Positions 36,109 through 53,411 are shown, counted from the stretch's first letter. The stretch is 64,000 nucleotides of DNA from Actinomycetes bacterium (GCA_021793675.1 JAJYSG010000004.1:2536-66535); one strand, 5' to 3'. Notes: generated by a model from the sequence alone, not told the origin. Made by a program: numbers and translations.

Positions 36109-37182
36109 GTGGCTCTCACCATCGGCATCGTCGGGCTCCCGAACGTCGGCAAGTCGACCCTCTTCAACGCGCTGACCCGGGCTCAGGTGCTGGCGGCGAA
36201 CTACCCGTTCGCGACGATCGAGCCCAACGTGGGCGTGGTCCCGCTGCCGGACCCGCGCCTCGACGTCCTGTCGCGGCTCTTCGACTCCGAGCGGATCGTG
36301 CCCGCCACGGTGTCCTTCGTCGACATCGCCGGCATCGTCAAGGGCGCCTCGGAGGGCGAGGGGCTGGGCAACAAGTTCCTCGCCAACATCCGCGAGGCCG
36401 ACGCGATCTGCGTGGTGACCAGGGCGTTCGCCGACCCCGACGTGGTGCACGTCACCGGCCGGGTGGACCCGCTCGACGACATCGCGACCATCCACACCGA
36501 GCTGGCGCTCGCTGACCTGCAGACGCTGGAGAAGGTGGTGCCGCGGCTGGAGAAGGAGGTCCGGGCCAAGAAAGCCGACCCCGTCGAGCTCGCCGCGGCG
36601 CAGGCCGCGCAGGCGGTCCTCTCGGAGGGCCGGGTGCTGCACGGCTCGGGCGTCGACGTCGAGGCGCTCGCGCCCTTCTTCCTGCTCACGACGAAGCCGT
36701 TCATCTACGTGTTCAACACGGACGACGCCGGTCTCGCGGACGCCGAGATGCAGGCGTCGCTGCGGGCGGCGGTGGCCCCGGCGGACGCGATCTTCCTCGA
36801 CGCCAAGTTCGAGGCCGAGCTCGTCGAGCTGGCGCCCGACGAGGCCCGCGAGATGCTCGCCGAGACCGGTCAGGAGGAGTCCGGGTTGGACCAGCTGGCC
36901 CGTGTCGGCTTCCACACCCTCGGCCTGCAGACCTACCTGACGGCGGGCCCGAAGGAGTCCCGCGCCTGGACCATCCACCAGGGCTGGACCGCCCCGCAGG
37001 CCGCCGGAGTCATCCACACCGACTTCCAGAAGGGCTTCATCAAGGCGGAGGTCATCTCGTACGCCGACCTCGTCGAGGCGGGCACCGTCGCTGCCGTGCG
37101 CGCCGCGGGCCGGGCCCGGATCGAGGGCAAGGACTACGTCATGGCCGACGGCGACGTGGTGGAGTTCCGCTTCAACGTCTAG
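36109..37182 (+). CDS. ychF: Redox-regulated ATPase YchF
   Basis: GLPNVGKST, DIAGIVKGAS, IHTDF, FRFNV C-terminus. Confidence 0.98.
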   Translation: MALTIGIVGLPNVGKSTLFNALTRAQVLAANYPFATIEPNVGVVPLPDPRLDVLSRLFDSERIVPATVSFVDIAGIVKGASEGEGLGNKFLANIREADAICVVTRAFADPDVVHVTGRVDPLDDIATIHTELALADLQTLEKVVPRLEKEVRAKKADPVELAAAQAAQAVLSEGRVLHGSGVDVEALAPFFLLTTKPFIYVFNTDDAGLADAEMQASLRAAVAPADAIFLDAKFEAELVELAPDEAREMLAETGQEESGLDQLARVGFHTLGLQTYLTAGPKESRAWTIHQGWTAPQAAGVIHTDFQKGFIKAEVISYADLVEAGTVAAVRAAGRARIEGKDYVMADGDVVEFRFNV

Positions 37183-37222
37183 GGCGTGTCTCCCATAGGT
37201 TCGGTGGGGCTGGCGGCAGCCT

Positions 37223-37648
37223 GTGCGGGTGACGACGGCTTCTTCGCGGTTCGCGGTGTTCGCTGACGAGCAGTGGGCGCGGATTGAGCCGTTGTTGCCG
37301 AGCAACGCAGGCCGTCGTGGGCATCCGTTCGAGGACAACCGGCGGGTGGTCGAGGGGATCGTCTACCGCTACCGGACCGGGATCCCGTGGCGGGACCTGC
37401 CGCGCGGGGAGTTCGGGCCGTGGCAGACGGTGTGGAAGCGGCACCGCCGCTATGCCGCGAACGGGACGTGGGACCGAGTGCTGGCTCGGTTGTTGGCCGA
37501 GGCCGACGCGGCAGGGCAGGTTGACTGGACGGTGAGCGTGGACGCCACGATCAACCGGGCCCATCAGCACGCGACGAACACCACGCGCCCGGAGCAGGAC
37601 ACAGGGGGCTCGTGCGAATCACAAGAATCTGCCGCTGACGGCGTGTGA
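37223..37648 (+). CDS. IS5 transposase, N-terminal ORF (orfA)
   Basis: DEQWARIEPLLP, RTGIPWRDLP, FGPWQTV, VDATINRAHQHA. Confidence 0.92.
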   Translation: MRVTTASSRFAVFADEQWARIEPLLPSNAGRRGHPFEDNRRVVEGIVYRYRTGIPWRDLPRGEFGPWQTVWKRHRRYAANGTWDRVLARLLAEADAAGQVDWTVSVDATINRAHQHATNTTRPEQDTGGSCESQESAADGV

Positions 37649-38144
37649 ACCTGCAGGTCACGGCATCGGACGCTCCCGTGGTGGGTTGACCACCAAGATC
37701 CATGCCGGTGTCGACGGGCACGGACGACCACTGGCGATCGTGGTGACCGGCGGGCAGCGCAACGACGGCGCGATGCTGACCGAAGTGCTCGCCGACATCC
37801 GTGTTCCCCGACTCGGTCGCGGCCGTGCACGCACCCGTCCCGATGCTGTCCTGGCCGACCGGGCCTACGCCTCCGGCGTCATCCGCCGTGAGCTTCGCCG
37901 CCGCGGCATCAAGGTCGTCATCCCCGAGAAGGTCGACCAGATCACCGCCCGCCAGCGGCGAGGCTCACGCGGCGGGCGGCCACCCACCTTTGACGCCGAC
38001 ACCTACAAGGACCGCAACGTCGTCGAACGCCACTTCGCGCTCACCAAGCAGTGGCGCGCCCTGGCCACCCGCTACGACAAACTCGCCACCACCTACCGCG
38101 CCGCCGTCGTCCTGGCCGCCTGCATCATCTGGACCCGCATCTGA
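37602..38144 (+). CDS. IS5 transposase, C-terminal ORF (orfB, +1 frame relative to orfA)
   Basis: IGRSRGGLTTKIH, ADRAY, YKDRNVVER, RALATRYDK; frame open across G5 run at 37604-37608; start is the inferred shift region. Confidence 0.9.
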   Translation, partial: QGARANHKNLPLTACEPAGHGIGRSRGGLTTKIHAGVDGHGRPLAIVVTGGQRNDGAMLTEVLADIRVPRLGRGRARTRPDAVLADRAYASGVIRRELRRRGIKVVIPEKVDQITARQRRGSRGGRPPTFDADTYKDRNVVERHFALTKQWRALATRYDKLATTYRAAVVLAACIIWTRI

Positions 38145-38211
38145 GAGAGACACGCACTGGCGGCCGGTGGGATCCTCGGCTCACCGGCACAGGCGTCGTC
38201 GTCGAGCCGGT

Positions 38212-38273
38212 CGGGGCACCCGGCACCCGGTCATCTCCCCAGAGCCGTGAGGTGCCGGGTGCCCCGCTCTTTT
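38212..38273 (+). terminator. 16-bp perfect inverted repeat followed by T tract
   Basis: CGGGGCACCCGGCACC (38212-38227) / GGTGCCGGGTGCCCCG (38251-38266) then CTCTTTT. Confidence 0.75.
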
Positions 38274-38285
38274 GAGCCAGGCCGG

Positions 38286-38792
38286 TCATTCCTGCGGGGC
38301 TACCAGGCCCAGCGCTGCGCAGAACGTGCCCACGTCCGCCCCGTCCGCGTTCGGCAGGACCGCGAGGCGCCCGTCGCGCAGCTCACACGCAGTCGGGTTC
38401 GGGACGTTGGGGATATCCACCTTCACGGAGCCGGTAGGGATGGCAGTCCATCCCGTAACGCACGAGTCGATCGCCTGCTGGACGCGCTCGGCCATCGGAA
38501 TCAGCCGTGTGGTCTGGTGTCCGTCATCGACCCAGACCGTGGTGGCATGGGGTGCTGAGAGGTCGGTCGTCGTGTAGCAGTCGAAGCTCGTGTTCAGCGC
38601 GTCCGTGGGGGCCGCATTGACGTAGATCGCGGCAGCCGTGGTCGCGCCGGCGATGACGAGCGCCGACCCGGCACCGGCCAGCGCCCAGGTGACACGCCTG
38701 CGATGCTTGCGTGTCTCGATGGTGGCGGCGATCTCGCGCCGCATCGTTGCGATCTGACCGTCCGTGGGGACGAAGTCCAGCGGAACACTCAT
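38286..38792 (-). CDS. Putative anti-sigma factor (single TM, Cys-containing extracytoplasmic domain)
   Basis: ATGA overlap with ECF sigma; short cytoplasmic N-terminus, RRR-TM, four external Cys. Confidence 0.75.
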   Translation of the reverse strand: MSVPLDFVPTDGQIATMRREIAATIETRKHRRRVTWALAGAGSALVIAGATTAAAIYVNAAPTDALNTSFDCYTTTDLSAPHATTVWVDDGHQTTRLIPMAERVQQAIDSCVTGWTAIPTGSVKVDIPNVPNPTACELRDGRLAVLPNADGADVGTFCAALGLVAPQE

Positions 38793-39394
38793 GCTCCGAC
38801 CTCCTTGTGATCGGCGAGACTGGCTTGCAGGCGTGAACGAAGCCGCGCAAGCCGATTGCGCACTGAGGCGTGACTGACACCCAGCTCGGCGGCCGCCTGC
38901 TGGTAGGAGCGGCCCATCTCGGTGCAGAGAATGAACAACCGTCGATCGATATCCGACAGCTGAGCGATGGCCTGATCGATTGCGACTCCGAGCATTCTGC
39001 GCTCGGCCGCGACGTCCGTCGTTTCTTCCTCGACCACGGCGTCGGCGTCGAGATCCATGAGTTGCCGCGAATCGCGCAGAGCCTTGCGTCGCTTCGCAAG
39101 GCTGATGTTGCGGCAGGCGACGAGAAGCCACGGGAGAGCCGAGTCGCCCACGAGAGTGATGGAACGTGCCTTCTCGAACGCGAGGACGAAGACATCCTGT
39201 GTGGCGTCCTCGGCGTCCCGTGGCGTCGCGCAAAGGCGCACCGCGTAGCGGTACACCGTCCTGACATGCCGGTCGTACAGCGTGCCGAACGCGGACCGGT
39301 CGCCGGCGCGCACGCGATCGAGAAGGACCCCGTCCAGCTCCTCGACGTCCGGCCACCCGGACGCCACTGCACGCTCCTCGCGGTCGACGGTCAC
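38789..39394 (-). CDS. ECF RNA polymerase sigma factor
   Basis: Region 2 LYDRH...DAEDATQDVF...PWL and region 4 SYQQAAAELGVSHASVRNRL. Confidence 0.95.
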   Translation of the reverse strand: MTVDREERAVASGWPDVEELDGVLLDRVRAGDRSAFGTLYDRHVRTVYRYAVRLCATPRDAEDATQDVFVLAFEKARSITLVGDSALPWLLVACRNISLAKRRKALRDSRQLMDLDADAVVEEETTDVAAERRMLGVAIDQAIAQLSDIDRRLFILCTEMGRSYQQAAAELGVSHASVRNRLARLRSRLQASLADHKEVGA

Positions 39395-39528
39395 GCTTCG
39401 TAGTGTCCTCGACCTCTGATTCGTCTCGCGCGACCTCGTCGGCTGCTCTTGCTGGTCCGCGCCGAGGGGAGGACGATGCCGGACGATTCCCTCATCGTGG
39501 AGGGGATGTCATCTGGGGAGATGAGCAC

Positions 39529-40113
39529 ATGAAGAGCACGAGACTGCCGCGCGCCCTGCTCGCGGTCGCACTTGCAGTGGGAATCGGGGCGGCCGCCGCC
39601 ACACCGGCTTCGGCCGCCGCAACGGGTGGTTCACCCGGGCAGGATTGCGGGTACTTCATCGAGACGGGCGCAACGGTGTGCGTGCCCCACGGCGCTGACC
39701 TCAACGGGGCAATCTACGCGCAGACAGGCAAGACGGTCGTCGAGATGTCGGCAAACGGCGTCACAGCGCTGACTGCGCCCGAATCAAAGCAAGCGTCATC
39801 GGGCATGACCGTAAGCCCGGCCTCGAACAGTTTCATCATTGGCAAGCTCTTCGACGACATCAACTACGGCGGCGGTTCCTACGAGATTCTCGCCAGTGGA
39901 CCATGCGCTTCCGGCACCCCAACGTGGTATCTCAACGACGTCGGATCCGCATGGTACGGCCGGGTGAGTTCGTTCCAGGGGTATTCGAACTGCAACGTCA
40001 CCATCTACGAGGGGACGTACCAGACCGGCGCACAACTCGGCCCACTCTCCTACTCGGCCTGGGTCGGTGCCGCGATGAACGACCGGACGAAGTCCGTCAA
40101 GCTGACCTACTGA
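39529..40113 (+). CDS. Secreted protein with C-terminal beta/gamma-crystallin-like (inhibitor I36-like) repeats
   Basis: Signal peptide ending PASA; LFDDINYGG...VSSF and IYEGTYQTG...MNDRTKSV Greek-key-like motifs; four Cys. Confidence 0.75.
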   Translation: MKSTRLPRALLAVALAVGIGAAAATPASAAATGGSPGQDCGYFIETGATVCVPHGADLNGAIYAQTGKTVVEMSANGVTALTAPESKQASSGMTVSPASNSFIIGKLFDDINYGGGSYEILASGPCASGTPTWYLNDVGSAWYGRVSSFQGYSNCNVTIYEGTYQTGAQLGPLSYSAWVGAAMNDRTKSVKLTY

Positions 40114-40397
40114 CGCGCTACCCGGCCTGAGTCGGTTCTGCCCGGGGCTGTTCCCGAGTCGCCGGGCAGAACCGACCGTCTCGCCACTGAACAGCCCGCT
40201 GCCCGAGCTCGCCCAAGTCCTCCTGCACCGCGAAGACCTCGGGGACCTGCCCGCCGACCTGGAGCTGCAGTGGCGAGACCGTGACATCGTCGCCCACCTG
40301 ACCGCATCTGCGTGACCGCCGCCGCCCCAGCTGTCTGCATCACCTGGCCACGCAAATGAGAGACACGCCCTAGCACCGGCGAGAGGGAGGGAGCGCC

Positions 40398-41216
40398 ATG
40401 AGCAAGGTCTGGTTCGTCACGGGCGCCTCGAGAGGCTTCGGACGGGTGTGGGCCACCGCCGCCCTGCAACGAGGCGACAGCGTCGCGCTCGCGGCACGGC
40501 GCCCTGCGGCGGTCCAGGACCTTGTCGACGCCTATCCGGACACCGCCCTGGCCGTGCGGCTCGACGTCACCGACCGCGAGCGCGTGTTCGCGGCCGTGCA
40601 GGAGGTGGTCGACCACTTCGGGCGGATCGACGTCGCGGCGAACAACGCCGGCTTCGGCCACTTCGGCATGGTCGAGGAGGCCACCGAGGAGGAGGTTCGC
40701 GCCCAGTTCGAGACGAACGTCTTCGGTGCGCTGTGGGTCACCCAGGCCGTCCTCCCGGTGCTGCGGGCGCAGCGGTCGGGCCACCTGCTGCAGACCTCGT
40801 CGCGGATGGGGGTCCAGGCGGTGCCCAACCTGGGCATCTACAACGCGTCCAAGTTCGCCCTCGAGGCCTTCTCCGATGCGTTGTCGCAGGAGGTGCGTGA
40901 TCTCGGGATCAAGGTCACGCTCATCGAACCGCAGGGCTACGCCACCGACTGGTCCAGTGTCTCAGCGCACCGGTCGGCCACGAACCCGGCGTACGACGAC
41001 TTCCGCGCCTGGCTCGCGGAGCATCCGACCACCGTGCCGCAGGGGCAGCCCGAGGCGACCGGTCGTGTGATCCTCGAGATCGTCGACATGGAGGAGCCTC
41101 CGCTGCGCGTCCTGTTCGGGCACGGCGCGGTCGAGCGGGTCGAGGCCGTCTACGCCGACCGGCTGCGGACGTGGGACGAGACGCGGCGGCTCAGCGAGCG
41201 CGCCGACCACCTGTGA
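40398..41216 (+). CDS. Short-chain dehydrogenase/reductase
   Basis: TGASRGFG, NNAG, YNASK. Confidence 0.95.
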   Translation: MSKVWFVTGASRGFGRVWATAALQRGDSVALAARRPAAVQDLVDAYPDTALAVRLDVTDRERVFAAVQEVVDHFGRIDVAANNAGFGHFGMVEEATEEEVRAQFETNVFGALWVTQAVLPVLRAQRSGHLLQTSSRMGVQAVPNLGIYNASKFALEAFSDALSQEVRDLGIKVTLIEPQGYATDWSSVSAHRSATNPAYDDFRAWLAEHPTTVPQGQPEATGRVILEIVDMEEPPLRVLFGHGAVERVEAVYADRLRTWDETRRLSERADHL

Positions 41217-42835: not shown

Positions 42836-42905
42836 TCAGGCGCACCGGCGGTGGGGGGAGGCCGTCACCTCACGGGGTGGTCCCCGCACCGACCGCGCGA
42901 CGTCG

Positions 42906-43576
<671 letters not shown>

Positions 43577-43580
<4 letters not shown>

Positions 43581-44710
43581 CGGTTGCCTCCCAGGGCGTT
43601 GAGGGGGTCGATCCGGGCGATGCGGACGACGGCGACGGCCGCGCCCACCATGCCCAGGGCCACGGTGAGGACGGTGGCGGCCGCGATGGGTCCGGCCTCG
43701 AGGGCGAACGGCATGGGGGTGGTGGAGATCGCCGCCCCGGCCGCCAGGCCCAGCCCGATGCCGAGCGCCGTGGCCGTCCCCAGCAGCACCGCGGACTGCA
43801 TCAGGCTGTCGCGCAGCAGGTAGCTCGTGCTGGCGCCCATCGCCCGCATGACGGCGATCTCCTGCTGGCGCTGGATCGTCAGCACGGTGAAGAAGGCGCC
43901 GACCACCAGGGCTGAGATGACGTAGAGGAAGGCCTCGATCATCTGCAGGGTCGAGGTCTCGGCGGTGTACCCGGGTGACGCACCGTAGGACTGCGCCTTC
44001 GTCAGCGAGGACGTGCCCGTGGCACGGTCGGCCGCCGCGAGGTCCGGACCGGCGCCCGCCTGGGCCTTCACCGCCACCGCGGTCACCTCGTGGTAGACCC
44101 GCGGCGGGACCGGGTCGCCCGGACGGACCCCGGCATGGATCTCCTGCCAGGTGCGCAGCGGCACGTAGCCCACCTCGACGTGACCGAAGGTCTGCTGGGT
44201 GGGCAGGATGCCGACCACGTGCAGCGCCGTGCCGAGCGGCTCGAGCGTCACCACGTCGCCGAGGTGGATGCCCTGCCTGGCCGCAGTCGCGCTGATCACC
44301 ACCTCGTCCGGGGCGCCGGTCAGCCGGGAGCCGCTGGCCACCGCGGGGTCGATGAACGACCCCGGTTCGACGCCGAACAGCGCCAGGTCGATCTCGAGGC
44401 CGCGGTTGGTCCGGGTGTTGACCAGGGTGTTCCCGAACGGCGCCGCCGCGGCGACGCCGTTCTGGTGCGCCCAGGCCGGCACCGCGTCGGTGGAGACCAC
44501 GCTGCGTGAGAACGCGGAGTCCTTCGTGACGTGCTGCTGGAACGCCAGTGACGTCACGGGCAGTCGCTGCAGCCCGGAGACGCCGTCGTTGGCCAGGCCC
44601 ACCGACAGCCCGCTGAGCAGCACCATGAGCATGGCGATGAGAACGACGACGGAGCCCATCAACGCGAAGCGTCCCCGGGCGAAGATCAGTTCGCGGGGGG
44701 CGAGGAACAT
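43577..44710 (-). CDS. FtsX/MacB-type ABC permease (HrtB-like)
   Basis: N-terminal TM, large external domain, EIAVMRAMGAS, three C-terminal TMs, IDPLNALG. Confidence 0.9.
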
Positions 44711-44729
44711 CTCAGTACCTCGCCGCAAG

Positions 44730-44777
44730 TTTTGTCGACACCATGTCGGGAACTATAACAACACCGTGTCGGCAAAA
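44730..44777. promoter_or_regulatory. Long inverted repeat with two CGACAC-type palindromic sites around -10 TATAGT; probable repressor operator
   Basis: TTTTGTCGACAC ... GTGTCGGCAAAA (11/12). Confidence 0.7.
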
Positions 44778-44865
44778 GTCCACCCGGCGTCGCGCCGACG
44801 GCCCCGCGCCCGGATCCCCGGGTTCCGCGTCGAGGTCGTCGGCGCGCCGCTGCGCGACTGAGCCG

Positions 44866-47031
44866 TCAGCCCGCGATCCGCCGCGACGGCCACCACATCG
44901 CGCGCCCGAGCTCCTGCCCGAGCGCGGGCACCAGCAGCGAGCGCACCAGCACCGTGTCGAGCAGCACGCCGAACGCCACGATGAACGCCAGCTGCAGCAG
45001 GAAGAGGATGGGGATCACCGCCAGGGCCGCGAACGTCGCGGCGAGCACCACGCCCGCCGAGGTGATGACGCCGCCGGTGATGCCGAGGCCCCGGGACATG
45101 CCCGCACGGGCGCCGGTGCGCAGCGCCTCCTCCCGCACCCGCGTCATGAGGAAGATGTTGTAGTCGATCCCCAGCGCGACGAGGAAGACGAAGCCGAACA
45201 GCGGCACCGCTGGGTCCGCCCCCGGCAGGTGCAGCACGTGGTTGAACACGACGGCGGAGATCCCCAGCGTCGCTCCGAACGACAGCACCACGGTGCCGAC
45301 CAGCAGCACCGGGGCGACGAGCGCCCGGAGCAGCAGCACGAGGATCACGAGGATCACCAGCAGCACCAACGGGATGATGAGGTTCCGGTCGTGCACCGAG
45401 GCGTGGTCGGAGTCCACCGCCGTGGCGGTCACCCCGCCCACCAGGGCGCCGGAACCGAGCTGGCTGCGCAGCTGGCGCACGGTGCTCTCCGCGGCGGCCG
45501 AGTCCGGCGCCTGAGCGAGGGTCGCCTCGAGCAGCACGTCACCGTGCGAGACGGTCGGTGCCGGCACGGGCGTCCCGGGGACCAGCGGCTGCACCCCGGC
45601 GGCGGTCACCGGCGCCTGACCGCTGGGGGAGCCGGCCGCCACCACGGCGACCGACGTCACGCCGTGCGACGCCAGCAAGGTCCCGGCCGCGGCCTGCAGC
45701 CGGTCCGCGGGGACGATCACCTGCACGGGGCTGCCGGAGCCCCCGGGGAAGTGCTCGGCGAGCTGCTGCTGACCGGTGCGCGCCTGCGAGCCGCCCAGCA
45801 CCAGGTCGCTGGCAGGCACGCCGCTGGCACGCAGCTGCAGCAGGCCCGCGCTGGCGACGAGCAGCACGACGACGCCCAGCAGCCACACCGGGCGCGACCG
45901 CCGTGCCACGAACCGCGGTACGCGCGCCCACAGGCCGGTGGTCGGCACGGGGTCCGCGCCGGCCTCGTCGGGCGCGAAGCGGGGCCGCCGCGGCCAGAAC
46001 GCCGCCCGGCCCAGCAGCAGGAGCAGCGACGGCAGCAGCGTCAGCGCGGCGAGCATCGCGAACACGATGCCGACGGCCGCGATCGGCCCGAGCGCGCGGT
46101 TCGACTGCAGCTCGCTGAGCAGCAGCATGAGCAGGCCGGCGACGACCGTGCCGCCCGAGGCGAGGATGGGCCCGACCGCGCCGCGCAGCGCCGCGCGCGT
46201 CGCGTCCCAGCGGTGCTCGTGCGCCCGCAGCGCCTCGCGGTACCGCGCGACGTAGAGCAGCGAGTAGTCGGTCGCCGCGCCGATCACCAGGATGAAGAGG
46301 ATGCCCTGCGTCTGGCCGCTGAGCGGGAACACGCCGGCCTTGGCCAGCCACCACACCGTCAGCAGGGCGGCCGTCAGCGCGAACGTGCTGGTGAGCAGCA
46401 CGACGAACGGCAGCAGCGGCGACCGGTACACCACCACGAGGATCACCAGCACGGCCAGCACGGCGACCAGCAGCAGGATGCCGTCGATCCCGCCGAACGC
46501 CGTCACCAGGTCGGCGGTGAACCCGGCCGGCCCGGTGACGTAGACGCTGGTGCCGGGCGGCACCAGGTGCGGCAGCGCGGTACGCATCGCCGCCACCGCG
46601 TCGCCGGTGGAGACCGACGCCGACACCGGGACGAACACCTGGGCCGCCGTGCCGTCCTGCGACAGGATCGGCGGGCTCGGCTGGCTGACGCCCGGGATGG
46701 CCGCCAGCGCGGCCGGGACCCGGTCCAGCTGGGCCCGCTGTGCGGTGGTCAGCGGCGAGCCGGACGTCACCAGCACCACCGCCGGGATCGTGTCCCCGCC
46801 GAGGAACGCGGGCAGCCGCCGCTGCACCTGGGTGGCCTGGGCGCTCGTCGGCAGGTAGGCGGTCGGGTCGTTCGACGAGACCTCGCCGACCCGTCCGAAG
46901 TACGGACCACCGACGCCGGCGACGGCGAGCCAGACGAGCACGATCAGCGCCGGCAGCACCGCGCGCAGCACCCGTGCGGTGCGGTGGCGCGCGGACGGCG
47001 TCCGGGTGGGCGGCGGGTCCAGGCGGGTCAT
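44866..47031 (-). CDS. MMPL family transporter in carotenoid operon
   Basis: GAATDY and ALGIDYNIFL motifs, two-repeat topology; ATGA overlap with crtEb. Confidence 0.93.
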   Translation of the reverse strand: MTRLDPPPTRTPSARHRTARVLRAVLPALIVLVWLAVAGVGGPYFGRVGEVSSNDPTAYLPTSAQATQVQRRLPAFLGGDTIPAVVLVTSGSPLTTAQRAQLDRVPAALAAIPGVSQPSPPILSQDGTAAQVFVPVSASVSTGDAVAAMRTALPHLVPPGTSVYVTGPAGFTADLVTAFGGIDGILLLVAVLAVLVILVVVYRSPLLPFVVLLTSTFALTAALLTVWWLAKAGVFPLSGQTQGILFILVIGAATDYSLLYVARYREALRAHEHRWDATRAALRGAVGPILASGGTVVAGLLMLLLSELQSNRALGPIAAVGIVFAMLAALTLLPSLLLLLGRAAFWPRRPRFAPDEAGADPVPTTGLWARVPRFVARRSRPVWLLGVVVLLVASAGLLQLRASGVPASDLVLGGSQARTGQQQLAEHFPGGSGSPVQVIVPADRLQAAAGTLLASHGVTSVAVVAAGSPSGQAPVTAAGVQPLVPGTPVPAPTVSHGDVLLEATLAQAPDSAAAESTVRQLRSQLGSGALVGGVTATAVDSDHASVHDRNLIIPLVLLVILVILVLLLRALVAPVLLVGTVVLSFGATLGISAVVFNHVLHLPGADPAVPLFGFVFLVALGIDYNIFLMTRVREEALRTGARAGMSRGLGITGGVITSAGVVLAATFAALAVIPILFLLQLAFIVAFGVLLDTVLVRSLLVPALGQELGRAMWWPSRRIAG

Positions 47032-47954
47032 GAGCGTCCCATCGTGATGAGGATCAGGGTGACGAGGAAGCCGACGACGTAGTTGACGGCCAGGAAGCGG
47101 CGCCAGCCGCCGTGCGCGGCGGCGGAGCTCTCGTCGGCCACCGACCGGTACGGCCAGGCCAGGGCCAGGTAGGGCACGACGAGCGGCGCCGCGAGCAGCC
47201 CGGGGAAGGGCTCCGCGAGCAGCAGCACGCCCGCGGCCGCCCAGAGCGTCAGGGCGAGCCGCACGGTGCGGGCGGCCCCGAGCGCCGTCGCGACCGAGGC
47301 GAGCCCCGCCTGGCGGTCCGGCACCACGTCCTGCACCGCACCGAACGCCTGCGCGGCGACGCCCCACAGGAAGAACGCGACGAGCGCGAGCACCGCCGGC
47401 CGGCTCCAGACACCCCCCGCGAGGACCAGGCCGTAGACGGCGGGGCCGGTGAAGTGCGTGCTCGAGGTCCGCGAGTCGAGCACGGGCCGCTCCTTGAACC
47501 GCAGCCCCGGAACCGAGTAGGCGGCGACGGCGAGCAGCGACACCGCCAGCACCGCCCACGACGCCGGTCCCCCGAGCGCGACGAGCACCGCGACGAACGG
47601 GACGCAGGCGGCCACCGCTGCGACGAGCACCTGCCGGTGCACACCCGGCTCGAGCAGGGCACCTTCGACGCCGCCCTTGCGCGGGTTCGCCGCGTCGGAC
47701 GCGTAGTCGAACACGTCGTTGATCCCATACATCGCGAGGTTGTACGGCACCAGGAAGAAGGCGGTGCCGAGTGCGAGCACCCACGTCACGCCGCCGCCGG
47801 CGAGCAGGTAGGCGGCGGCGAACGGGTAGGCGGTGTTCACCCAGCTCAGCGGCCGGGAGGCGGCCAGCAGCCGCCGCGCCAGGGCACTACCCGCCACGGC
47901 TCGCCCCACGCCCGGCGTGGTGGACGTCGTCGTGGCCGGCGTCGTGCTCGGCAT
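47028..47954 (-). CDS. crtEb: Lycopene elongase (UbiA-family prenyltransferase)
   Basis: SRPLSWVNTAYPF, YGINDVFDY, NPRKGGVEG, AVQDV; start uncertain. Confidence 0.9.
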   Translation of the reverse strand: MPSTTPATTTSTTPGVGRAVAGSALARRLLAASRPLSWVNTAYPFAAAYLLAGGGVTWVLALGTAFFLVPYNLAMYGINDVFDYASDAANPRKGGVEGALLEPGVHRQVLVAAVAACVPFVAVLVALGGPASWAVLAVSLLAVAAYSVPGLRFKERPVLDSRTSSTHFTGPAVYGLVLAGGVWSRPAVLALVAFFLWGVAAQAFGAVQDVVPDRQAGLASVATALGAARTVRLALTLWAAAGVLLLAEPFPGLLAAPLVVPYLALAWPYRSVADESSAAAHGGWRRFLAVNYVVGFLVTLILITMGRS

Positions 47955-48261
47955 GCTTCCTCCGGCGGGTCAGCTCCCACACGCCCGGCAGCAGCAGGGC
48001 GGTGGCCAGGGGATAGGAGAAGTCCTCGAGCGGCGCGCGCCCGAGGTGCAGCCCGGACGCGTGGGCGCGCGCGAAGTCGTCGACGCCCACCGCCAGCATG
48101 ACGTTGTCGACCACCGCCGTCATCACCAGCAGCACCGCGAGCGCCACCGCGGTGGGCGCGATCCCGATGGGCCGGCCGCGTCGTCGGGCCACGACCGCGG
48201 CCAGCAGGCGCACGGCGGCGGCGACGGCGACCAGGCCGAGCGCGAGCGTCGGGTAGCTCAT
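47887..48261 (-). CDS. C50 carotenoid cyclase subunit (CrtYf/Yh-like)
   Basis: MTAVVDNVM, APLEDFSY. Confidence 0.88.
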   Translation of the reverse strand: MSYPTLALGLVAVAAAVRLLAAVVARRRGRPIGIAPTAVALAVLLVMTAVVDNVMLAVGVDDFARAHASGLHLGRAPLEDFSYPLATALLLPGVWELTRRRKHAEHDAGHDDVHHAGRGASRGG

Positions 48262-48581
48262 GGCGACACCTTGCGCGGCAGTGCGCGCTGCGCGCCGCGC
48301 ACCAGCAGCACCGTCAAGCAGCAGAGGAAGGCGAGGAACACCGGCTCCTCGAGCGGCAGCTCCGGCGCCAGCAGCACGCCGGTCATCACGCGGCTCGGGA
48401 CGCGGAAGAACAGCCCGTGCGAGATCCCGACGAGGTCGGCGGCGAGCAGCACCGCGACCCCGACGGCGGCGACGACCGCCGCCCGCAGCGCGTCGTGCCA
48501 GAACAGCAGCCGCCACCGCCGGTCGACCAGCACCAGGCCGCCGCCGGAGACGAGCAGGGCCGTCAGGTAGGCCGCCCTCAC
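48258..48581 (-). CDS. C50 carotenoid cyclase subunit (CrtYe/Yg-like)
   Basis: DRRWRL, APELPLEE. Confidence 0.88.
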   Translation of the reverse strand: MRAAYLTALLVSGGGLVLVDRRWRLLFWHDALRAAVVAAVGVAVLLAADLVGISHGLFFRVPSRVMTGVLLAPELPLEEPVFLAFLCCLTVLLVRGAQRALPRKVSP

Positions 48582-50143
48582 GCCAGGCTCCCGACGCGCT
48601 CCGGCAGCGGCGACGCGCTGCGGTCCCCGCGGACGCGCTTGGCCACCAGCTCGGCGCTGATGAGGCACATCGGCACGCCGATGCCGGGGATGGTGCTGCC
48701 GCCCGCGTACAGCAGGCCCCGCACGCGGCGCGACGCGTTGGGCGCTCGCAGCACCGCGCTCTGGCGCAGGGTGTGGGCAGGGCCGAGCGCGCTGCCGGAC
48801 CACGACCGCAGGTCGTCGGCGAAGTCGCCGGGCGCGACGGTCCGCCGCACGACGACGCGTTCGGCCAGGTCGCCCGCGCCGGTCCACGCCGCGATCCGCT
48901 CGATCGTGCGGTCGACGAACGCCTCGACGGGCGCGTCGCCCGCGCCGTCGACGCCGCCGTGCCCGAGCCCCGGGTCCGCCGGCACCGGCACCAGGACGAA
49001 GAGGTTCTCGTCGCCCTGTGGCGCCACGGTGGGGTCGGTCGCGCTCGGCCGGCCGATGTAGAGGGACGGCGAGGCGGGCAGCCCGCGGCCGCGGCGCAGC
49101 GCGGCGAAGCCGCCGTCCCAGTCGTCGGCGAGCAGCAGCGTGTGGTGCGCCAGCTGCGGCACCCGGCCGCGGACCCCGAGCATCGCCAGCACGGCGCCCG
49201 GGCCCGGGTCGCGCCGCCGCCACCACCGCTCGTCGAGGTCCCGGTGCTCGGGGGCCAGCAGGGTGGTCTGGGCGTGGTGCAGGTCGCCGGCGGCGACGAC
49301 GAGCTCGGCGTCCAGCCGGTGCTCGGCCCCGTGCTCGTCCTGGTACAGCACGCCCCGGGCGGCTCCGCGCTCGACGAGGATGCGGTGCACGGGCGCGCCT
49401 GTGACCAGCCGCGCCCCGGCGGCGGTCGCCAGCTCGGCGACGGACTCGACCACGCGCGCGAACCCGCCGTCCGGGTACCGCACCGCGTCGTCCACGTCGA
49501 GGTGGCTCATGAGGTGGTACATCGCCGGCACCCGCATGGGGGACCCGCCGAGGAACACCGCGGGGTAGCCGAGCAGCCGGCGCAGCCGGGGGTCGCGGGT
49601 GTGGGCGCGGATCTCGGCGTCCAGCGAGCGGCCGAGCAGCCCGACCAGGCGGGGGAGCCGGGCCAGCAGCTGCCGGTCGAGGAACGGGCCCAGGGAGTCG
49701 AACGAGCTGTAGAGGAACCGGTCGATCGCCAGCCGGTAGGTCGCCGAGGCGGAGTCGAGGTAGCGCTCCAGGCCGGCGGCGGAGCCGGGGTCGAGGCCCA
49801 GCAGCGCCGCCCGCGCCGCGGGGCCGCCCGCCGGCAGGTCGAACGGCTCGGGATCGCCCTCGAAGTAGGCGCGGTAGCCCGGGTCGAGGGTGCGCAGCAC
49901 CAGCTGTTCGTCGGCGGACGTGCCCAGCAGCCGGTAGAAGTGGTCGAACACCTCGGGCATGAGGTACCACGAGGGCCCGGTGTCGAACCGGAACCCGCCC
50001 TGCTCCCAGGACCCGGCCCGGCCGCCGAGCCGCGGCAGCGCCTCGAGCAGCGTGACCCGGTGACCGTCCGCGGCGAGCAGGGCGGCGGCGGCCAGGCCCG
50101 CGACACCCCCGCCGATGACGACGGTCTCCAGCGGCCGGCTCAC
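48578..50143 (-). CDS. crtI: Phytoene desaturase
   Basis: IGGGVAGL, FDTGPSWYLMP, HTLRQS, PGIGVPMCLIS. Confidence 0.96.
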   Translation of the reverse strand: MSRPLETVVIGGGVAGLAAAALLAADGHRVTLLEALPRLGGRAGSWEQGGFRFDTGPSWYLMPEVFDHFYRLLGTSADEQLVLRTLDPGYRAYFEGDPEPFDLPAGGPAARAALLGLDPGSAAGLERYLDSASATYRLAIDRFLYSSFDSLGPFLDRQLLARLPRLVGLLGRSLDAEIRAHTRDPRLRRLLGYPAVFLGGSPMRVPAMYHLMSHLDVDDAVRYPDGGFARVVESVAELATAAGARLVTGAPVHRILVERGAARGVLYQDEHGAEHRLDAELVVAAGDLHHAQTTLLAPEHRDLDERWWRRRDPGPGAVLAMLGVRGRVPQLAHHTLLLADDWDGGFAALRRGRGLPASPSLYIGRPSATDPTVAPQGDENLFVLVPVPADPGLGHGGVDGAGDAPVEAFVDRTIERIAAWTGAGDLAERVVVRRTVAPGDFADDLRSWSGSALGPAHTLRQSAVLRAPNASRRVRGLLYAGGSTIPGIGVPMCLISAELVAKRVRGDRSASPLPERVGSLA

Positions 50144-51012
50144 GCCGCGACCCCCGGCGCGAGCGACCACCGCACCGCCAGCGCGACCTTCACCGGCGCC
50201 GGCACCGAGACCCGCACGTGGGCGAGCCGGTCGGCCGGCAGCCGGTCGATGCGCCGCAGCAGCTCGCCGAAGATCGCGGTGGCGACGAGCACCGCGCGGC
50301 GGCAGTCCGCCGGCAGGTGCCGCACCGCGCCCCGGGCGGCCCGCAGGTCCGCCCGGATGTCCGCGACGACGGCCGCCTTGGCCTGCTCGGTCAGCCCGGG
50401 GCGGGAGCCGGGCAGGTAGGCACGGCCGAGCCGCTGCCGGTCGTCGCCGACGTCGCGCAGGAAGTTCACCTTCTGGAACGCTGCGCCCAGGCGCGCCGCC
50501 CCCTCGTCGAGCGCCGCGCCGACCGCCGGGTCCACCGGCCGTCCCGCGAGGAACACCCGCAGGCACATCAGCCCGACGACCTCCGCCGAGCCGTGCACGT
50601 AGCTGCGGTACGCGTCGTCGTCGAACGCCACCTCGTCCAGGTCCCGCCGCATCGACGCGAAGAACGCCCTGGTCAGGGCGGGTTCGATGGCGCAGCCGCG
50701 GACCACCGCGGCGAACGCGTGGACGACGAGGTTCGCGGAGAAACCGGTGGCGACGGCGCGCCCGGTCTCGGCCTCGAGGTCGTCGAGCAGCCGGCGCTGC
50801 GCCGTCCGGTCGAGCCCGGCCTCCGCGGCCGTGCCGTCGACGACCTCATCGGCGATCCGCACCAGGGCGTAGATCGACGCGATGGCTCCCCGGCAGCGGC
50901 GCGGGAACAGGCCGGTCGCCAGCCGGAACGACGTGGAGTACCGGCGGATCACCGGGGCGGCGGCCAGGTGCGCGGTGCCGCTGTACAGCGCGAGCCCGGT
51001 CGCGCGGCTCAT
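50140..51012 (-). CDS. crtB: Phytoene synthase
   Basis: YSTSF, RIADEVVD, GSAEVVGLM, FQKVNFLRD. Confidence 0.96.
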   Translation of the reverse strand: MSRATGLALYSGTAHLAAAPVIRRYSTSFRLATGLFPRRCRGAIASIYALVRIADEVVDGTAAEAGLDRTAQRRLLDDLEAETGRAVATGFSANLVVHAFAAVVRGCAIEPALTRAFFASMRRDLDEVAFDDDAYRSYVHGSAEVVGLMCLRVFLAGRPVDPAVGAALDEGAARLGAAFQKVNFLRDVGDDRQRLGRAYLPGSRPGLTEQAKAAVVADIRADLRAARGAVRHLPADCRRAVLVATAIFGELLRRIDRLPADRLAHVRVSVPAPVKVALAVRWSLAPGVAA

Positions 51013-52181
51013 GACCGGCGCTCCGCGGCCCGGTCCGCCTCACGGGCGAGCAGCCGCGCCAGCCCCGTCGGCAGGCCGGCCCGCTCGACGAGACGCAGCG
51101 CGGCGTCCCGTTCGTCGTGCAGCTCCTGCTCGGCCCGCCGCCGCGCGCCGGAGCCCTCCAGGGCGTGGCGCAGCCGGTCGGCGTCCTGCTCGTCCAGGTC
51201 GGGGCGTCCGAACAGGTGCTCGACCGCCTGCCACGGCCCGGTGCCGCGGGCCGCCGCCACGAGGAGCGTCTGCTTGCCCTCTCGCAGGTCGTTGGACGCG
51301 CTCTTGCCGGTCTCGGCGCTCCGGCCGAACACCCCGAGCAGGTCGTCGCGCATCTGGAACACGACGCCGAGGGACCGTCCGACGTCCCCGAGCCGGTCGA
51401 CGAGCGCGGCGGGCGAGCCCGCGAGGATCGCCGCGGCACGCAGCGGCAGCTCCAGGGAGTAGTACGCCGTCTTGTCCGCCATCGTGTCCCTGATCTGCGC
51501 CGGCGTCGGGATCACCAGGCCGGCGGCGTAGGCGACGTCGGCGAGCTCACCGGCGGCTGCGCGGAACACGCTCTCGTCGACCAGCTCCACGAGCTGCGCC
51601 CGACGCGCCGCGTCGACGTCCAGGCGAGCGGCGATGCCCAGCGCCGACGTGAGCATGAGGTCCCCGGCGAGCAGCGCGGCGTGCTCGCCCCACCGCCGCG
51701 CCGGGTGCGCGGGCAGGCCGCCGGCGGCGCCGACGGCCGCGAACGTGCCCACCACGTTGGGTGCGCCGCGGCGCTGCACGTCGCCGTCGATGACGTCGTC
51801 GTGCACCAGGAGGGCCGTGTGCAGCAGCTCGACCGCCACCGCGAGCTCGATCGCGGGCTCCAGCCGGGTGCCGCCCAGGTGCAGGAAGGCGCCGAGCAGC
51901 AGCCGCGGGCGCAGCCGCTTGCCGCCGTGCGTCGCGGCCTGCAACGCGCCCCACAGCTGCGAGTAGGGCCCGGCGTGCCGGCCGGCCCGGGTCACCTGCT
52001 CGTCGAAGAACCTGTCGAGCCGCCGTTCGGTCTCGACGAGTGCCGCGGACAGCGTCGGCAGCACCACCGGGCCGGCGTGGCGGGGTCGTGCCGCGTCGCT
52101 CGCGGGCCGGCGCCGCCCGGTCGGCAGCTCCGGACCCGCCGGCTCCCGCGGGCCGAGGCCCGGGGCGGTCTCGGCGCTCAT
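51009..52181 (-). CDS. crtE: Geranylgeranyl diphosphate synthase
   Basis: GGKRLRP, HDDVID..RRG, KTAYYS, FQMRDD, DLREGK. Confidence 0.93.
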   Translation of the reverse strand: MSAETAPGLGPREPAGPELPTGRRRPASDAARPRHAGPVVLPTLSAALVETERRLDRFFDEQVTRAGRHAGPYSQLWGALQAATHGGKRLRPRLLLGAFLHLGGTRLEPAIELAVAVELLHTALLVHDDVIDGDVQRRGAPNVVGTFAAVGAAGGLPAHPARRWGEHAALLAGDLMLTSALGIAARLDVDAARRAQLVELVDESVFRAAAGELADVAYAAGLVIPTPAQIRDTMADKTAYYSLELPLRAAAILAGSPAALVDRLGDVGRSLGVVFQMRDDLLGVFGRSAETGKSASNDLREGKQTLLVAAARGTGPWQAVEHLFGRPDLDEQDADRLRHALEGSGARRRAEQELHDERDAALRLVERAGLPTGLARLLAREADRAAERRS

Positions 52182-52717
52182 GCGGCGCTCCGTGCGGGGC
52201 CGGCGACCGCCGGGTCGAGCTCGGCGAGCTGCCGCACCAGCCACGGGCTGAACGCCCACGGCGCCAGGCGCGCCGCGCGGGCCAGGTCGGCCGGCGCCAC
52301 CCACGCGTGCTCCAGCACCTCGTCGGGCGCCGGGTCCGGGTCGCCCAGGGGACGGGCGCGGAACACCGGGCACACCTCGTTCTCCACCACGCCCGAGGGG
52401 TCGACCGCCCGGTACCGGAAGTCGGGCAGCAGCGGCGCCAGGTCGGTCAGCTCGACACCCAGCTCGCGCCGCGCGTGGCGGCGCACCGCGTCGTCGGTCG
52501 GCTCGTCCGGGCGGGGGTGGCCGCAGAAGGAGTTGGTCCATACGCCGGGCCAGGTGCGCTTGGTCAGCGCGCGCCGCGTGACGAGCAGCCGGCCGGCGTC
52601 GTCGTACAGGTAGCAGGAGAAGGCGAGGTGCAGCGGGGTCGCGAGGCCGTGCACGTCCGCCTTGGGCGCCGTGCCGATCGGTTCGCCCGCGTCCGAGACC
52701 AGGACGACATGGTCCAT
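52178..52717 (-). CDS. idi: Isopentenyl-diphosphate delta-isomerase type 1
   Basis: LHLAFS, WTNSFCGHP, ENEVCP, FSPW. Confidence 0.96.
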   Translation of the reverse strand: MDHVVLVSDAGEPIGTAPKADVHGLATPLHLAFSCYLYDDAGRLLVTRRALTKRTWPGVWTNSFCGHPRPDEPTDDAVRRHARRELGVELTDLAPLLPDFRYRAVDPSGVVENEVCPVFRARPLGDPDPAPDEVLEHAWVAPADLARAARLAPWAFSPWLVRQLAELDPAVAGPARSAA

Positions 52718-52747
52718 GACTCACCTCCGTAGTTTCGCTAGCCAGGA

Positions 52748-52770
52748 TAGTAGCCTCCGGAAGGCAACTA
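52748..52770. promoter_or_regulatory. Imperfect inverted repeat in idi/MarR divergent spacer, probable MarR operator
   Basis: TAGTAGCCT-CCGGA-AGGCAACTA (8/9). Confidence 0.55.
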
Positions 52771-52794
52771 TGCGAGAAGGGGTAGCGTTCTGCC

Positions 52795-53361
52795 ATGCCA
52801 ACCGAGGCGGAGATCCCCGAGATCGCCCAGGGTTTCCACGACCCGCGGGTCGTCGACCGCGCCGGCCGGCTGGTCGCCACCGAGGGGCTCGACGAGGCCG
52901 AGGTCGCCGAGGTGGTGCGGGTCATGGACGCGCTGTTCCGGTGGCGCACCGCCGAGCAGCGGGCCAGCGCGGCGTCCCGCCGCTACATGCAGCTCGGCGA
53001 GACCGACATGAAGGCGCTGCGCTTCGTCATCGTCCGCACCGACCAGGGCCGGACCGTCACCGCGCGCGACATCGCCGAGCACCTCGGGATCTCCAGCGCG
53101 TCGACGACGAAGCTGCTGGACCGGCTGGAGCACGGTGGCCACATCCGCCGCACGCCGCACCCGTCCGACCGTCGCGCGATCGCGGTGGTGGTCACCCCGC
53201 AGACCCGGCGCGCCGCCGAGGAGACGGTCGGCCGCGAGCACGCGCGCCGGTTCCAGGTCGCCGCAGCGCTGCGCCCCGCCGAGCGGGAGGTCGTCATCGA
53301 CTTCCTCGAGCGGCTGAGCGCGACGAGCGAGGAGAGCTGGGCCGCACCGACCGCGCCGTGA
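52795..53361 (+). CDS. crtR: MarR family regulator, CrtR-like
   Basis: MQLGETDMKALR, ISSASTTKLLDRLE, PHPSDRRA; divergent from crt operon as in corynebacterial CrtR. Confidence 0.8.
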   Translation: MPTEAEIPEIAQGFHDPRVVDRAGRLVATEGLDEAEVAEVVRVMDALFRWRTAEQRASAASRRYMQLGETDMKALRFVIVRTDQGRTVTARDIAEHLGISSASTTKLLDRLEHGGHIRRTPHPSDRRAIAVVVTPQTRRAAEETVGREHARRFQVAAALRPAEREVVIDFLERLSATSEESWAAPTAP

Positions 53362-53411
53362 CGCGCGGCTCGCCGTCACGGTGCTGGTTCCAGCAGGGCG
53401 CTGACCACCGT

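Follow-up and report, generated by a model that had tools for sequence, protein, structure and literature searches.

A probable transporter-IS-like unit of the IS5 family carrying an ECF sigma factor module at the ychF stop codon of an actinobacterial genome

The window analysed here is a 64,000-nt stretch of DNA from a high-GC actinobacterial metagenome-assembled genome (1.87 Mb, 103 contigs, 62% complete). Between the ychF gene and a gene for an SDR oxidoreductase, it contains a 3.2-kb unit with the following flanks, ends and boundaries.

36109-37182, + strand: ychF, the host gene of the left flank, a 357-aa ORF with the Pfam domains YchF-GTPase_C and MMR_HSR1
37183-40369, + strand: the whole 3.2-kb unit, from the left terminal inverted repeat (IRL) to the outer right one (IRR), delimited from the sequence and recurring as a block in other runs
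37183-37200, + strand: left terminal inverted repeat GGCGTGTCTCCCATAGGT, the same or nearly so in the genus copies that keep their left end
38147-38160, + strand: degenerate inner right end, with C changed to A at the tip, the flanking CTAG changed to CTGG and a GA insertion just upstream
40316-40359, + strand: 3'-terminal remnant of another transposase gene, different from the first, recognised by its similarity to IS 3' ends
40360-40373, + strand: perfect outer right end GAGACACGCC followed by CTAG, read in the sequence
40398-41216, + strand: SDR oxidoreductase gene of the right flank (Pfam adh_short)

The TAG stop codon of ychF was read as part of the target CTAG at 37179-37182, which confirms the initial annotation, and the C-terminus FRFNV followed by the stop is kept in 27 of the 29 relatives examined. 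On the other side, the ATG of the SDR gene is located 24 nt past the outer CTAG, with a ribosome-binding site 7 nt upstream of it. One unit only was found in the 1.87-Mb, 62%-complete assembly.

The left part of the unit is an intact IS of 974 bp (compact relatives have approximately 965-975 bp) with a transposase in two frames.

37223-37648, + strand: transposase orfA (DUF4096, Pfam E-value 6e-29)
37604-37608, + strand: conserved G5 run ACAGGGGGC, recognised from its recurrence in aligned copies; the +1 recoding within the orfA/orfB overlap is likely to occur here
37686-38144, + strand: transposase orfB (DDE), whose frame is open from at least 37560

The whole DDE domain was found only in the fusion of the two products, as orfA contains DUF4096 only and orfB begins at profile position 35. 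The fused OrfAB protein of 306 aa covers positions 5-199 of the 200 positions of Pfam DDE_Tnp_1, and matches NCBIfam NF033580 (IS5 family transposase) with 270.8 bits against a cut-off of 110, over profile positions 6-257 of 258. The shift between the frames is +1, not -1. The aligned copies also have the two-frame arrangement. Three IS copies in the closest relative (G115) are essentially identical to each other inside the ends and have the same G5 run, two-frame layout and 202-codon orfB frame, and a related transposase CDS annotated by PGAP has 955 nt (3n+1). By transposase type, two-ORF layout, size and short repeats beginning with GG, the IS is a member of the IS427 group of the IS5 family. 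Of the reported members of this group, for instance, IS1248 and the ISPaes/ISPpa series have 832-865 bp, 2-bp direct repeats and two overlapping ORFs, with the whole DDE domain only in the frameshift fusion (PMC3281130), and ISPssp5 has 837 bp, an inverted repeat beginning GGGCGTGTCATC and the direct repeat TA (PMC6514802). The IS studied here shares with them the two-ORF transposase, the small size and the ends, which read GGGCGTGTC as in ISPssp5; it differs in the +1 frame of orfB with its G5 run, and exceeds the Paracoccus and Psychrobacter examples by approximately 110-140 bp. The copies of this IS family with both ends assembled are flanked by CTAG, with two near-misses (CCAG and CTGG). 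In CTAG sites, duplication of TA and of CTAG yields the identical sequence; TA inside CTAG is the likely duplication of the unit, as in the IS427 group, and with TA duplicated as in curated IS of this group, the unit would occupy 37182-40370 and be flanked by TA.

The two right ends of the unit are in very different states. The left end reads GGCGTGTCTC at 37183-37192, and canonical copies end in ATATGAGAGACACGCC-CTAG, whereas the right tip of the IS itself reads GAGACACGCa followed by CTgG. The identity to the G115 copies is 73% at 38131-38160 versus 85-95% over the rest of the IS, and this inner right end is probably inactive. The perfect outer right end lies 2.2 kb beyond the inner tip; the outer arms are complementary at 17 of 18 positions (37179-37196 versus 40356-40373), and the inner pair at 75%. 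The 14-mer GAGACACGCCCTAG occurs three times in the 1.87-Mb assembly, always at IS ends, and CTAG is approximately 12.6-fold depleted there (352 seen versus 4427 expected), which excludes a chance origin of the ends. Directly in front of the outer end, the 44-nt remnant has the codons AAAAPAVCITWPRK followed by a stop, and the counterpart in the IS is AAVVLAACIIWTRI followed by a stop. Together with the inverted repeat, it gives a 58-nt match (40316-40373), with 88% identity for the G115 copies and 76% for the IS next to it; left of 40316, no IS similarity was convincingly above that of shuffled sequences. The structure proposed in the initial annotation, namely an IS5/IS427-type IS with a damaged inner right end, foreign cargo, approximately 45 bp of a diverged transposase 3' end and a perfect matching right end at CTAG, was thus upheld at every coordinate, with both right ends read directly and the similarity stopping at 40316.

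The outer CTAGs say nothing in favour of a single insertion, as CTAG is the site of nearly every copy of the IS family. Two independent IS insertions around DNA that was present between ychF and the SDR gene beforehand, of which the right one was later deleted to its tip while the right end of the left one decayed in place, would give the same outer junctions owing to the CTAG specificity, and nothing would have moved as a unit; the 76% identity between the two right ends over 58 nt, which places them in different IS variants, is in line with such a history. Its weak point is the DNA that lies between the two right ends.

38212-38266, no strand assigned: strong terminator-like hairpin with 16-nt perfect arms, just past the stop of the membrane-protein gene
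38286-38792, - strand: single-pass membrane protein of 168 aa, putatively an anti-sigma factor, whose start overlaps the sigma factor stop in ATGA
38789-39394, - strand: ECF-type sigma factor of 201 aa (Sigma70_r2 and r4_2)
39395-39528, no strand assigned: divergent intergenic region, presumed from its position only to bear promoters
39529-40113, + strand: 194-aa secreted protein with a signal peptide (...PASA/AA) and a weakly I36/crystallin-like C-terminal half
40131-40176, + strand: strong terminator-like hairpin with 15-nt perfect arms, after the secreted-protein gene

The three ORFs of this cargo are intact, as the initial annotation had stated. The sigma factor matches TIGR02937 with 71 bits (cut-off 42.9), has regions 2 and 4 only, and its closest paralogue in its own assembly is 33% identical. 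The membrane protein has one hydrophobic span (residues ~36-58), lacks an HxxxCxxC motif, matches neither Pfam nor NCBIfam models, and falls into nine clusters among 5.8 billion proteins; the secreted protein falls into fewer than 10 among the same number. For the latter, Pfam Inhibitor_I36 reached 16.3 bits, under the cut-off of 21.1, the AlphaFold model has a pLDDT of 46.8, and a 45% identical homologue (P0025) is flagged PF03995. In the intergenic region, no sigma-70-like promoter was found, and no ECF motif was seen by eye. The hairpin at 38212-38266 has a folding energy of approximately -48 kcal/mol (z -5.1 on one strand and -5.8 on the other), and that at 40131-40176 of -43.5 kcal/mol (z -5.7).

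Homologues of the membrane protein and of the secreted protein were found in none of the 109 genomes of other species of the genus, and the cargo DNA had no match among 40 relatives. The GC3 of the cargo genes is 0.78-0.83 and that of the IS ORFs 0.84-0.85, compared with 0.975 for ychF, 0.954 for a dedA-like gene and 0.923 for the SDR gene among the host neighbours; genome-wide, long coding-like ORFs have a median of 0.916 and a 5th percentile of 0.80. This bears out the earlier remark that the codon usage of the cargo is less GC-biased than that of the host, and the composition changes just where the two outer ends lie. These comparisons of homologues, DNA matches and GC3 indicate that the cargo is foreign to the host, which argues against DNA already resident at the locus.

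Contigs from three other public runs also contain the block of IS, cargo and remnant, with approximately 98-100% identity. One of these runs is a soil metagenome from a different study, in which a first contig extends from 37179 through the inner junction to 39632 at approximately 98% identity, and a second one spans 39628-40355. In the isolate named organism B, a 1600-nt contig matches 37785-39383 at approximately 98%; there was no ychF match at 90% identity or more, and the first 600 nt of the IS and the outer end are uncovered, although such gaps in contig cover prove nothing. In the isolate named organism A, a contig of 967 nt has 40172-40373 at one end and 765 nt unlike the window in the remainder; judged from the listed strand and the record coordinates, not from the sequence itself, the outer end appears to abut unrelated DNA. 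As the IS-cargo junction and the linkage of cargo and remnant thus recur at approximately 98% in an unrelated isolate and in the metagenome of another study, we consider two separate insertions quite improbable.

The divergence between sources looks uneven: compared with organism A, the IS has 17 differences and 3 gaps over 37248-37577 versus 0 substitutions over 37692-38119. The higher divergence of its 5' part (approximately 5%) than of its 3' part and the cargo (0-1%) indicates that IS-IS recombination also shaped the element. This mosaic would fit an arrival of the shared foreign block by homologous or illegitimate recombination or within a larger island, not via its own outer ends, for example by a crossover with an IS copy that had occupied the ychF CTAG before, in which case the IS ends would be marks of old events. 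Other IS copies of 91-93% identity, located at the ends of contigs C102 and C4 of the same genome, are in line with this, as is the DNA downstream of ychF, which is different in every relative examined. However, the remnant and the outer end are donor-type up to 40355 in the soil run or 40373 in organism A, so that no homology is left for a right-hand crossover, and both flanking genes are host-like in GC3, indicating that the foreign DNA stops exactly at the two terminal repeats. Arrival by recombination is therefore unlikely.

A chimeric join at IS sequence has to be weighed in such a fragmented assembly, in which related IS copies break C102 and C4, and among the source-run contigs listed, none was shown across the ychF/IS junction. 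Against such an artefact, two junctions are spanned by independent contigs from what is probably the source run: the inner one with 0 differences (38098-38278) and that of the outer end and the SDR gene with 1 (40247-40468). Moreover, ychF and the IS have only CTAG in common, which is too short for a k-mer mis-join, and the other IS copies have no more than 91-93% identity. We regard an artefact as very improbable.

In the genus, 10 of the 18 relatives of the IS with a delimitable right end have cargo of 196-951 bp behind the transposase stop, inside the outer repeat; its genes encode Pribosyltran, CPCC, GNAT or DUF7677 domains. The Pribosyltran element is present in two genomes (G112 and G122) with 92-93% identity and unrelated flanks, and the homology ends at both element ends. 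Judged from such comparisons, the cargo-bearing relatives in the genus evidently move as whole units; this, together with the block in the three other runs, supports the earlier proposal that the block travels as one unit. Two relatives (G004 and G045) also keep a degenerate inner end behind the transposase stop. The initial annotation had pointed to an empty site in close relatives, but no clean one was found, and a search of the JGI metagenome contigs for the exact 22-mer of such a site gave no match. In G115, ychF is joined to window position 41231 onward, both the unit and the SDR gene are absent, and the ychF tail is abnormal; this locus resembles the product of a deletion more than an ancestral arrangement.

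We compared the unit with known cargo-carrying systems. TMo and ISEcp1/ISCR-type elements use surrogate ends, met by chance in adjacent DNA. One-ended mobilisation by such transposable modules (TMos) and by ISEcp1/ISCR (PMC3281130, PMC9330008) resembles the present case in that a single IS copy mobilises DNA beside its right end, but the outer end here is a genuine perfect IRR of the family behind a transposase 3' remnant and no surrogate. Composite transposons such as Tn6097 (PMC3281130) likewise have cargo between two IS-derived ends, but a true one needs two IS copies, and the second copy here has 58 nt only. The perchlorate-reduction island of D. agitata CKB is IS-flanked, and such islands typically carry a sigF/nrsF sigma/anti-sigma pair (PMC4623255); they share with the unit a sigma/anti-sigma circuit on horizontally transferred, IS-bounded DNA. 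The closest likeness is to transporter IS (tIS), which have passenger ORFs within their terminal repeats, e.g. ISKpn21, ISKpn65 and ISRel10 (PMC10132070; for the concept see also PMC9330008). Like them, the unit has one IS-family transposase, family-type terminal repeats on the outside and unrelated passenger genes within, here three intact non-transposition genes between IRL and the perfect outer IRR, and the relatives in the genus each hold a different passenger in the same slot. As for different sites, the signs are indirect for this unit, whose soil contig starts at 37179 and whose outer end in organism A, by the contig listing, lies by 765 nt of unlike DNA; the cargo-bearing relative in G112 and G122 occupies different sites. 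Unlike tIS, the unit has a 2.2-kb three-gene regulatory module as cargo, not one small ORF, and keeps a recognisable degenerate inner right end and a 44-nt transposase stub, which makes it look composite-derived.

We therefore favour, with a probability of about 0.7, a transporter-IS-like unit of the IS427 group of the IS5 family, likely of composite origin, which entered the CTAG of the ychF stop by transposition. The intact IS would provide the left end and the two-frame (+1) DDE transposase; as its own right tip has decayed, the left end would now work together with the perfect right end 2.2 kb downstream, which belongs to the 58 nt that are left of another, related IS copy. Most likely, a small composite transposon around the cassette of ECF sigma factor, putative membrane anti-sigma factor and secreted protein stood at the start, and deletion of one IS down to its tip would have turned it into a single unit. 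This unit may then have transposed into the CTAG between ychF and the SDR gene, with the stop preserved, and we infer that it moved by its own outer ends. The cassette is presumed to be a self-contained envelope-signal circuit, in which the membrane protein would hold the sigma factor, and the sigma factor would drive both the operon to which it belongs and the divergently oriented gene of the secreted protein.

The unit is a sound new example of a known cargo-carrying IS, not a new kind of element; tIS, composite transposons and IS-bounded sigma/anti-sigma islands are established concepts, and the gain here is descriptive. Standard annotation would list an IS5 transposase on its own and, after it, a sigma factor and two hypothetical proteins. 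Reading them as a unit explains why, in one species, a rare three-gene circuit is located at the stop codon of a housekeeping gene, and why it recurs nearly unchanged in unrelated organisms. A regulatory module is now added to the known cargo of small IS, and the preserved inner end and transposase stub are a readable record of a unit arising from a composite. Together with approximately 10 cargo-bearing relatives, the unit points to an uncurated, often passenger-carrying lineage of the IS427 group. It is conceivable, although we hold it only tentatively and as rather doubtful, that a CTAG-targeting clade of this group in high-GC actinobacteria carries cargo systematically, in a slot which follows the transposase stop, precedes the right end and can exchange its contents. 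New cargo would then be captured when two insertions occur close together, one of them loses its IS body and the inner end decays, and the present unit, with its degenerate inner end and second-copy stub, would be an intermediate caught in this process. If this is true, an IS of 1 kb can spread complete plug-in regulatory circuits of sigma factor, anti-sigma factor and target gene between genera.

The ychF gene (36109-37182; Pfam YchF-GTPase_C and MMR_HSR1) terminates with a TAG stop codon that forms part of the CTAG at 37179-37182, and an IS5/IS427-type insertion sequence (IS) follows immediately. The initial annotation had described this IS, the three genes behind it and a second right end as one mobile unit, and by direct sequence reading all the sequence features it listed were found. 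We give a probability of about 0.7 to the reading that the 3.2-kb block (37183-40369) is a unit that entered the CTAG of ychF through its outer ends. The block is composed of the following features.

37183-37192: left end, GGCGTGTCTC, sequence read directly
37183-38156: IS, 974 bp, with orfA (DUF4096) and orfB (DDE_Tnp_1) in two frames
38147-38160: inner right tip of the IS, GAGACACGCa then CTgG, sequence read directly
within 38157-40315: ECF sigma factor gene, with regions 2 and 4 (TIGR02937 above cut-off)
within 38157-40315: gene for a 168-aa protein with a single hydrophobic span, its ATG overlapping the sigma stop (ATGA)
within 38157-40315: divergently transcribed gene for a 194-aa protein with a signal peptide and an Inhibitor_I36 match below threshold
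38212-38266: hairpin after an outward-facing stop, about -48 kcal/mol, z about -5 to -6
40131-40176: hairpin after an outward-facing stop, -43.5 kcal/mol, z about -5 to -6
40360-40373: outer right end, a perfect GAGACACGCC then CTAG, preceded by the codons AAAAPAVCITWPRK and a stop

The orfB gene lies in the +1 frame, which is open from at least 37560, and a single +1 step beside the conserved ACAGGGGGC run yields a 306-aa fused protein that spans the whole DDE_Tnp_1 profile and scores 270.8 bits (cut-off 110) with the NCBIfam model NF033580, 'IS5 family transposase'. The ACAGGGGGC motif and the two-frame layout were also found in aligned copies of the genus, and the CDS of a related annotated plasmid copy spans 955 nt (3n+1), indicating that the split is characteristic of the family and does not reflect damage. 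Within the IS5 family, small size, two overlapping ORFs, a DDE domain in the fusion alone and a 2-bp duplication are the traits of the IS427 group (PMC3281130). Among curated members of this group, ISPssp5 shows terminal sequences that start with GGGCGTGTC and a DR of TA (PMC6514802). The window IS is similar to ISPssp5 in its ends and probably in the duplication of TA, and to the IS427 group in size, overlapping ORFs and the position of the DDE domain.

Canonical compact copies of the family read CTAG-GGCGTGTCTCCCATAT ... ATATGAGAGACACGCC-CTAG. Since nearly every copy is located in CTAG, the two outer CTAG sites of the 3.2-kb stretch do not discriminate between one insertion and two. The aligned copies with the two-frame layout include three from the closest relative, G115; these are 89% identical to the window IS, and between their ends they hardly differ from one another. 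In the window's own assembly (G000), the IS family is multi-copy and breaks the assembly. One right and one left end of other copies of the same family (91-93% identical) were observed at the starts of two contigs (C102:1-143 and C4:1-33; loci L002 and L003), each followed by CTAG.

The outer arms are 17/18 complementary, compared with 75% for the inner pair. The assembly (1.87 Mb) contains the 14-mer formed by the outer end and its CTAG at three places, each of them an IS end, and CTAG itself is about 12.6-fold depleted (352 observed vs 4427 expected), so the outer end is not due to chance. With 352 sites in 1.87 Mb, few possible targets are available to the IS family in this genome. Relative to canonical copies, the inner right tip has gained a GA, carries C>A at its tip and is flanked by CTGG in place of CTAG; no other part of the IS is as diverged (73% identity vs 85-95% elsewhere), and the left repeat is invariant.

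Similarity of the outer end to the IS 3' end was significant over 58 nt (40316-40373), reaching 88% to the G115 copies and only 76% to the adjacent IS, which indicates that this segment is the stub of a second, different IS copy. A cointegrate of two sister IS copies was rejected as the origin because the two right ends are only 76% alike, and the stub argues for a composite origin, in which a composite would have formed and then lost one IS body. A longer right-hand remnant of about 100-140 nt was dropped, as the local score without the IR was matched by 10 of 500 shuffles. The stretch of roughly 130 nt that separates the second hairpin from the stub (40187-40315) forms an open frame ending in ...ELQWRDRDIVAHLTASA and a stop, with no significant similarity to the transposase; a variant copy (P0023) keeps this frame as a read-through extension of its secreted-protein gene.

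The end motif was searched for in the relatives that the IS has within the genus. The results showed eight compact copies, whose right end lies 5-46 nt past the transposase, and ten extended elements, in which 196-951 bp separate the transposase stop from a perfect or near-perfect outer repeat with CTAG. The extra genes differ among the extended elements, and most are on the opposite strand.

L057:1497-3072 (genome G112): Pribosyltran
L072 (G122): Pribosyltran
L059 (G012): CPCC cysteine-rich
L061 (G004): GNAT
L068 (G054): GNAT
L067 (G045): DUF7677
L063 and L077 (G100), L065 (G009), L078 (G056): ORFs without family match

The G112 and G122 elements are 92-93% identical and represent the same unit at different sites, with an internal 666-nt deletion in G122. 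Their homology stops exactly at both terminal repeats and their flanks are unrelated, indicating that cargo-bearing members of this IS clade do move as whole units. A degenerate inner end past the transposase stop is kept also in the G004 and G045 elements. Most extended relatives terminate in the exact inverse of the left repeat (GGGAGACACGCC), whereas the window unit terminates in the compact-type right repeat with a TGA and a transposase stub, which points to a route of origin unlike that of the extended relatives.

An empty site in relatives, with ychF ...GTCTAG joined directly to CACCGGCGAG, had been predicted by the initial annotation and was not found. The ychF-downstream region differs in 29 of 29 relatives, the SDR gene of the right flank is there in 0 of 29, and tblastx of this DNA against the window gave uninformative noise. 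The exact empty-site 22-mer had no match in JGI metagenome contigs, a collection that may lack the records closest to the window. G115 (87-90% nucleotide identity) is without the unit at ychF yet also without the SDR gene, and window 37173 is joined there to 41231 within about 25 nt (L086:2877-2930). Its YchF C-terminus reads FRFQATSGQK, compared with FRFNV in the window and nearly all other relatives. The G115 junction thus looks like a later deletion, possibly IS-mediated, that clipped the ychF tail, and not like the ancestral state. With 37183-40373 excised from the window, the start codon of the SDR gene, which has a GGGAGG ribosome-binding site, would lie 24 nt behind the stop of ychF, a plausible native junction. 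The ychF stop also forms GTCTAG in at least three relatives. Elsewhere in G115 (L086:1-737), window 42844 is joined to about 53408-54131 within ~500 nt, and the ~10.5 kb at 42845-53407 are absent or moved.

The cargo had also been described as less GC-biased than the host, which codon usage bore out (GC3 0.78-0.83 vs 0.923-0.975 in surrounding genes). Inside the unit, GC3 was 0.78 for the sigma and secreted-protein genes, 0.83 for the membrane-protein gene and 0.84-0.85 for the IS ORFs, and outside it was 0.975 for ychF, 0.954 for the gene upstream and 0.923 for the SDR gene (genome median 0.916, 5th percentile 0.80), so the compositional break coincides with the two outer ends. The cargo DNA had no match in 40 relatives, a search of 109 other species of the genus for homologues of the membrane and secreted proteins was negative at E<=1e-5, and the best sigma paralogue in the window's own assembly is 33% identical.

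The evidence from public sequencing runs excludes X7-X19 (small word shares) and uncovered bins. In the probable source run (X1, mine drainage), independent contigs span 38098-38278 across the inner junction with 0 differences and 40247-40468 across the outer-end/SDR junction with 1 difference, which argues against a mis-join. A joint 37164>39680 in this run (side 21 nt) was dismissed as spurious. In a soil metagenome of another study (X2), a 2,569-nt contig starts at 37179, crosses the IS and its inner junction and reaches 39632 with 53 substitutions and 4 gaps, and a second contig covers 39628-40355; ychF pieces of this sample are only 91-95% identical. The isolate organism B (X5) carries 37785-39383 on one contig at ~98% identity and has no ychF match at >=90%. 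In the isolate organism A (X3), the ychF and SDR pieces are 94-97% identical, the IS pieces show 0 substitutions and the sigma gene is 99.5% identical; 40172-40373 stands at the end of a 967-nt contig whose other 765 nt do not fit the window. If the strand is read as in the other rows, these 765 nt lie past the CTAG and would represent a different flank. By exact look-up, cargo proteins of 99% identity are encoded on two longer contigs, one of 22,493 bp from NCBI (P0003 and P0007) and one of 9,468 bp from JGI (P0008); the variant P0023 comes from an ENA contig of 1,996 bp. These recurrences indicate that the IS 3' half, the cargo and the remnant have long been linked and that several hosts share this arrangement. 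The 5' part of the IS is seemingly more diverged between sources than the rest of the block, which suggests that IS-IS recombination was also involved. A plasmid collection yielded matches to the IS alone (~78%) and no cargo. No locus related to the anti-sigma-like protein was found in genome or metagenome contig collections, and the exact outer-end 24-mer had no match in the genome contig collection; these collections may lack the records closest to the window.

The strong hairpins behind both outward-facing stops indicate that the cassette is self-contained. The 168-aa membrane protein has no family match in Pfam or NCBIfam, and the membrane and secreted protein families are very rare, with 9 and 8 clusters, respectively, in 5.8 billion proteins. 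Homologues about 45% identical to each were found on Logan contigs of 2,098 nt in both cases, probably one and the same contig; if so, the membrane/secreted pair is conserved. The fold model of the secreted protein was poor (pLDDT 46.8). The search for a sigma-70-like promoter was negative, and inspection of 39395-39528 by eye revealed no ECF promoter motif. Judging from its architecture alone, the cassette presumably acts in envelope signalling, as a circuit that regulates itself and switches on the secreted protein. As the distant homologues keep the signal peptide, the window version of this protein looks like the intact one. At window 39384-39630, other cargo copies differ from the window both between the sigma and secreted-protein genes and in the codons of the signal peptide. 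P0007 and P0008, the secreted proteins of such copies, are annotated with 163 aa and begin at what is residue 32-33 in the window protein, and in soil-run contigs tails unlike the window adjoin position ~39630 from either side.

The term transporter IS has been applied to IS derivatives that carry passenger genes (PMC9330008; usage in PMC10132070), and other IS-driven cargo carriers include composite transposons and single-IS transposable modules (PMC3281130). A sigma/anti-sigma pair on horizontally transferred DNA, IS-flanked in one case, was reported for the perchlorate-reduction island (PMC4623255). An IS with passenger genes is thus an already known kind of element, to which the window unit adds a case, and its interest lies in the three-gene regulatory cargo, the preserved record of how it arose and its spread among hosts.
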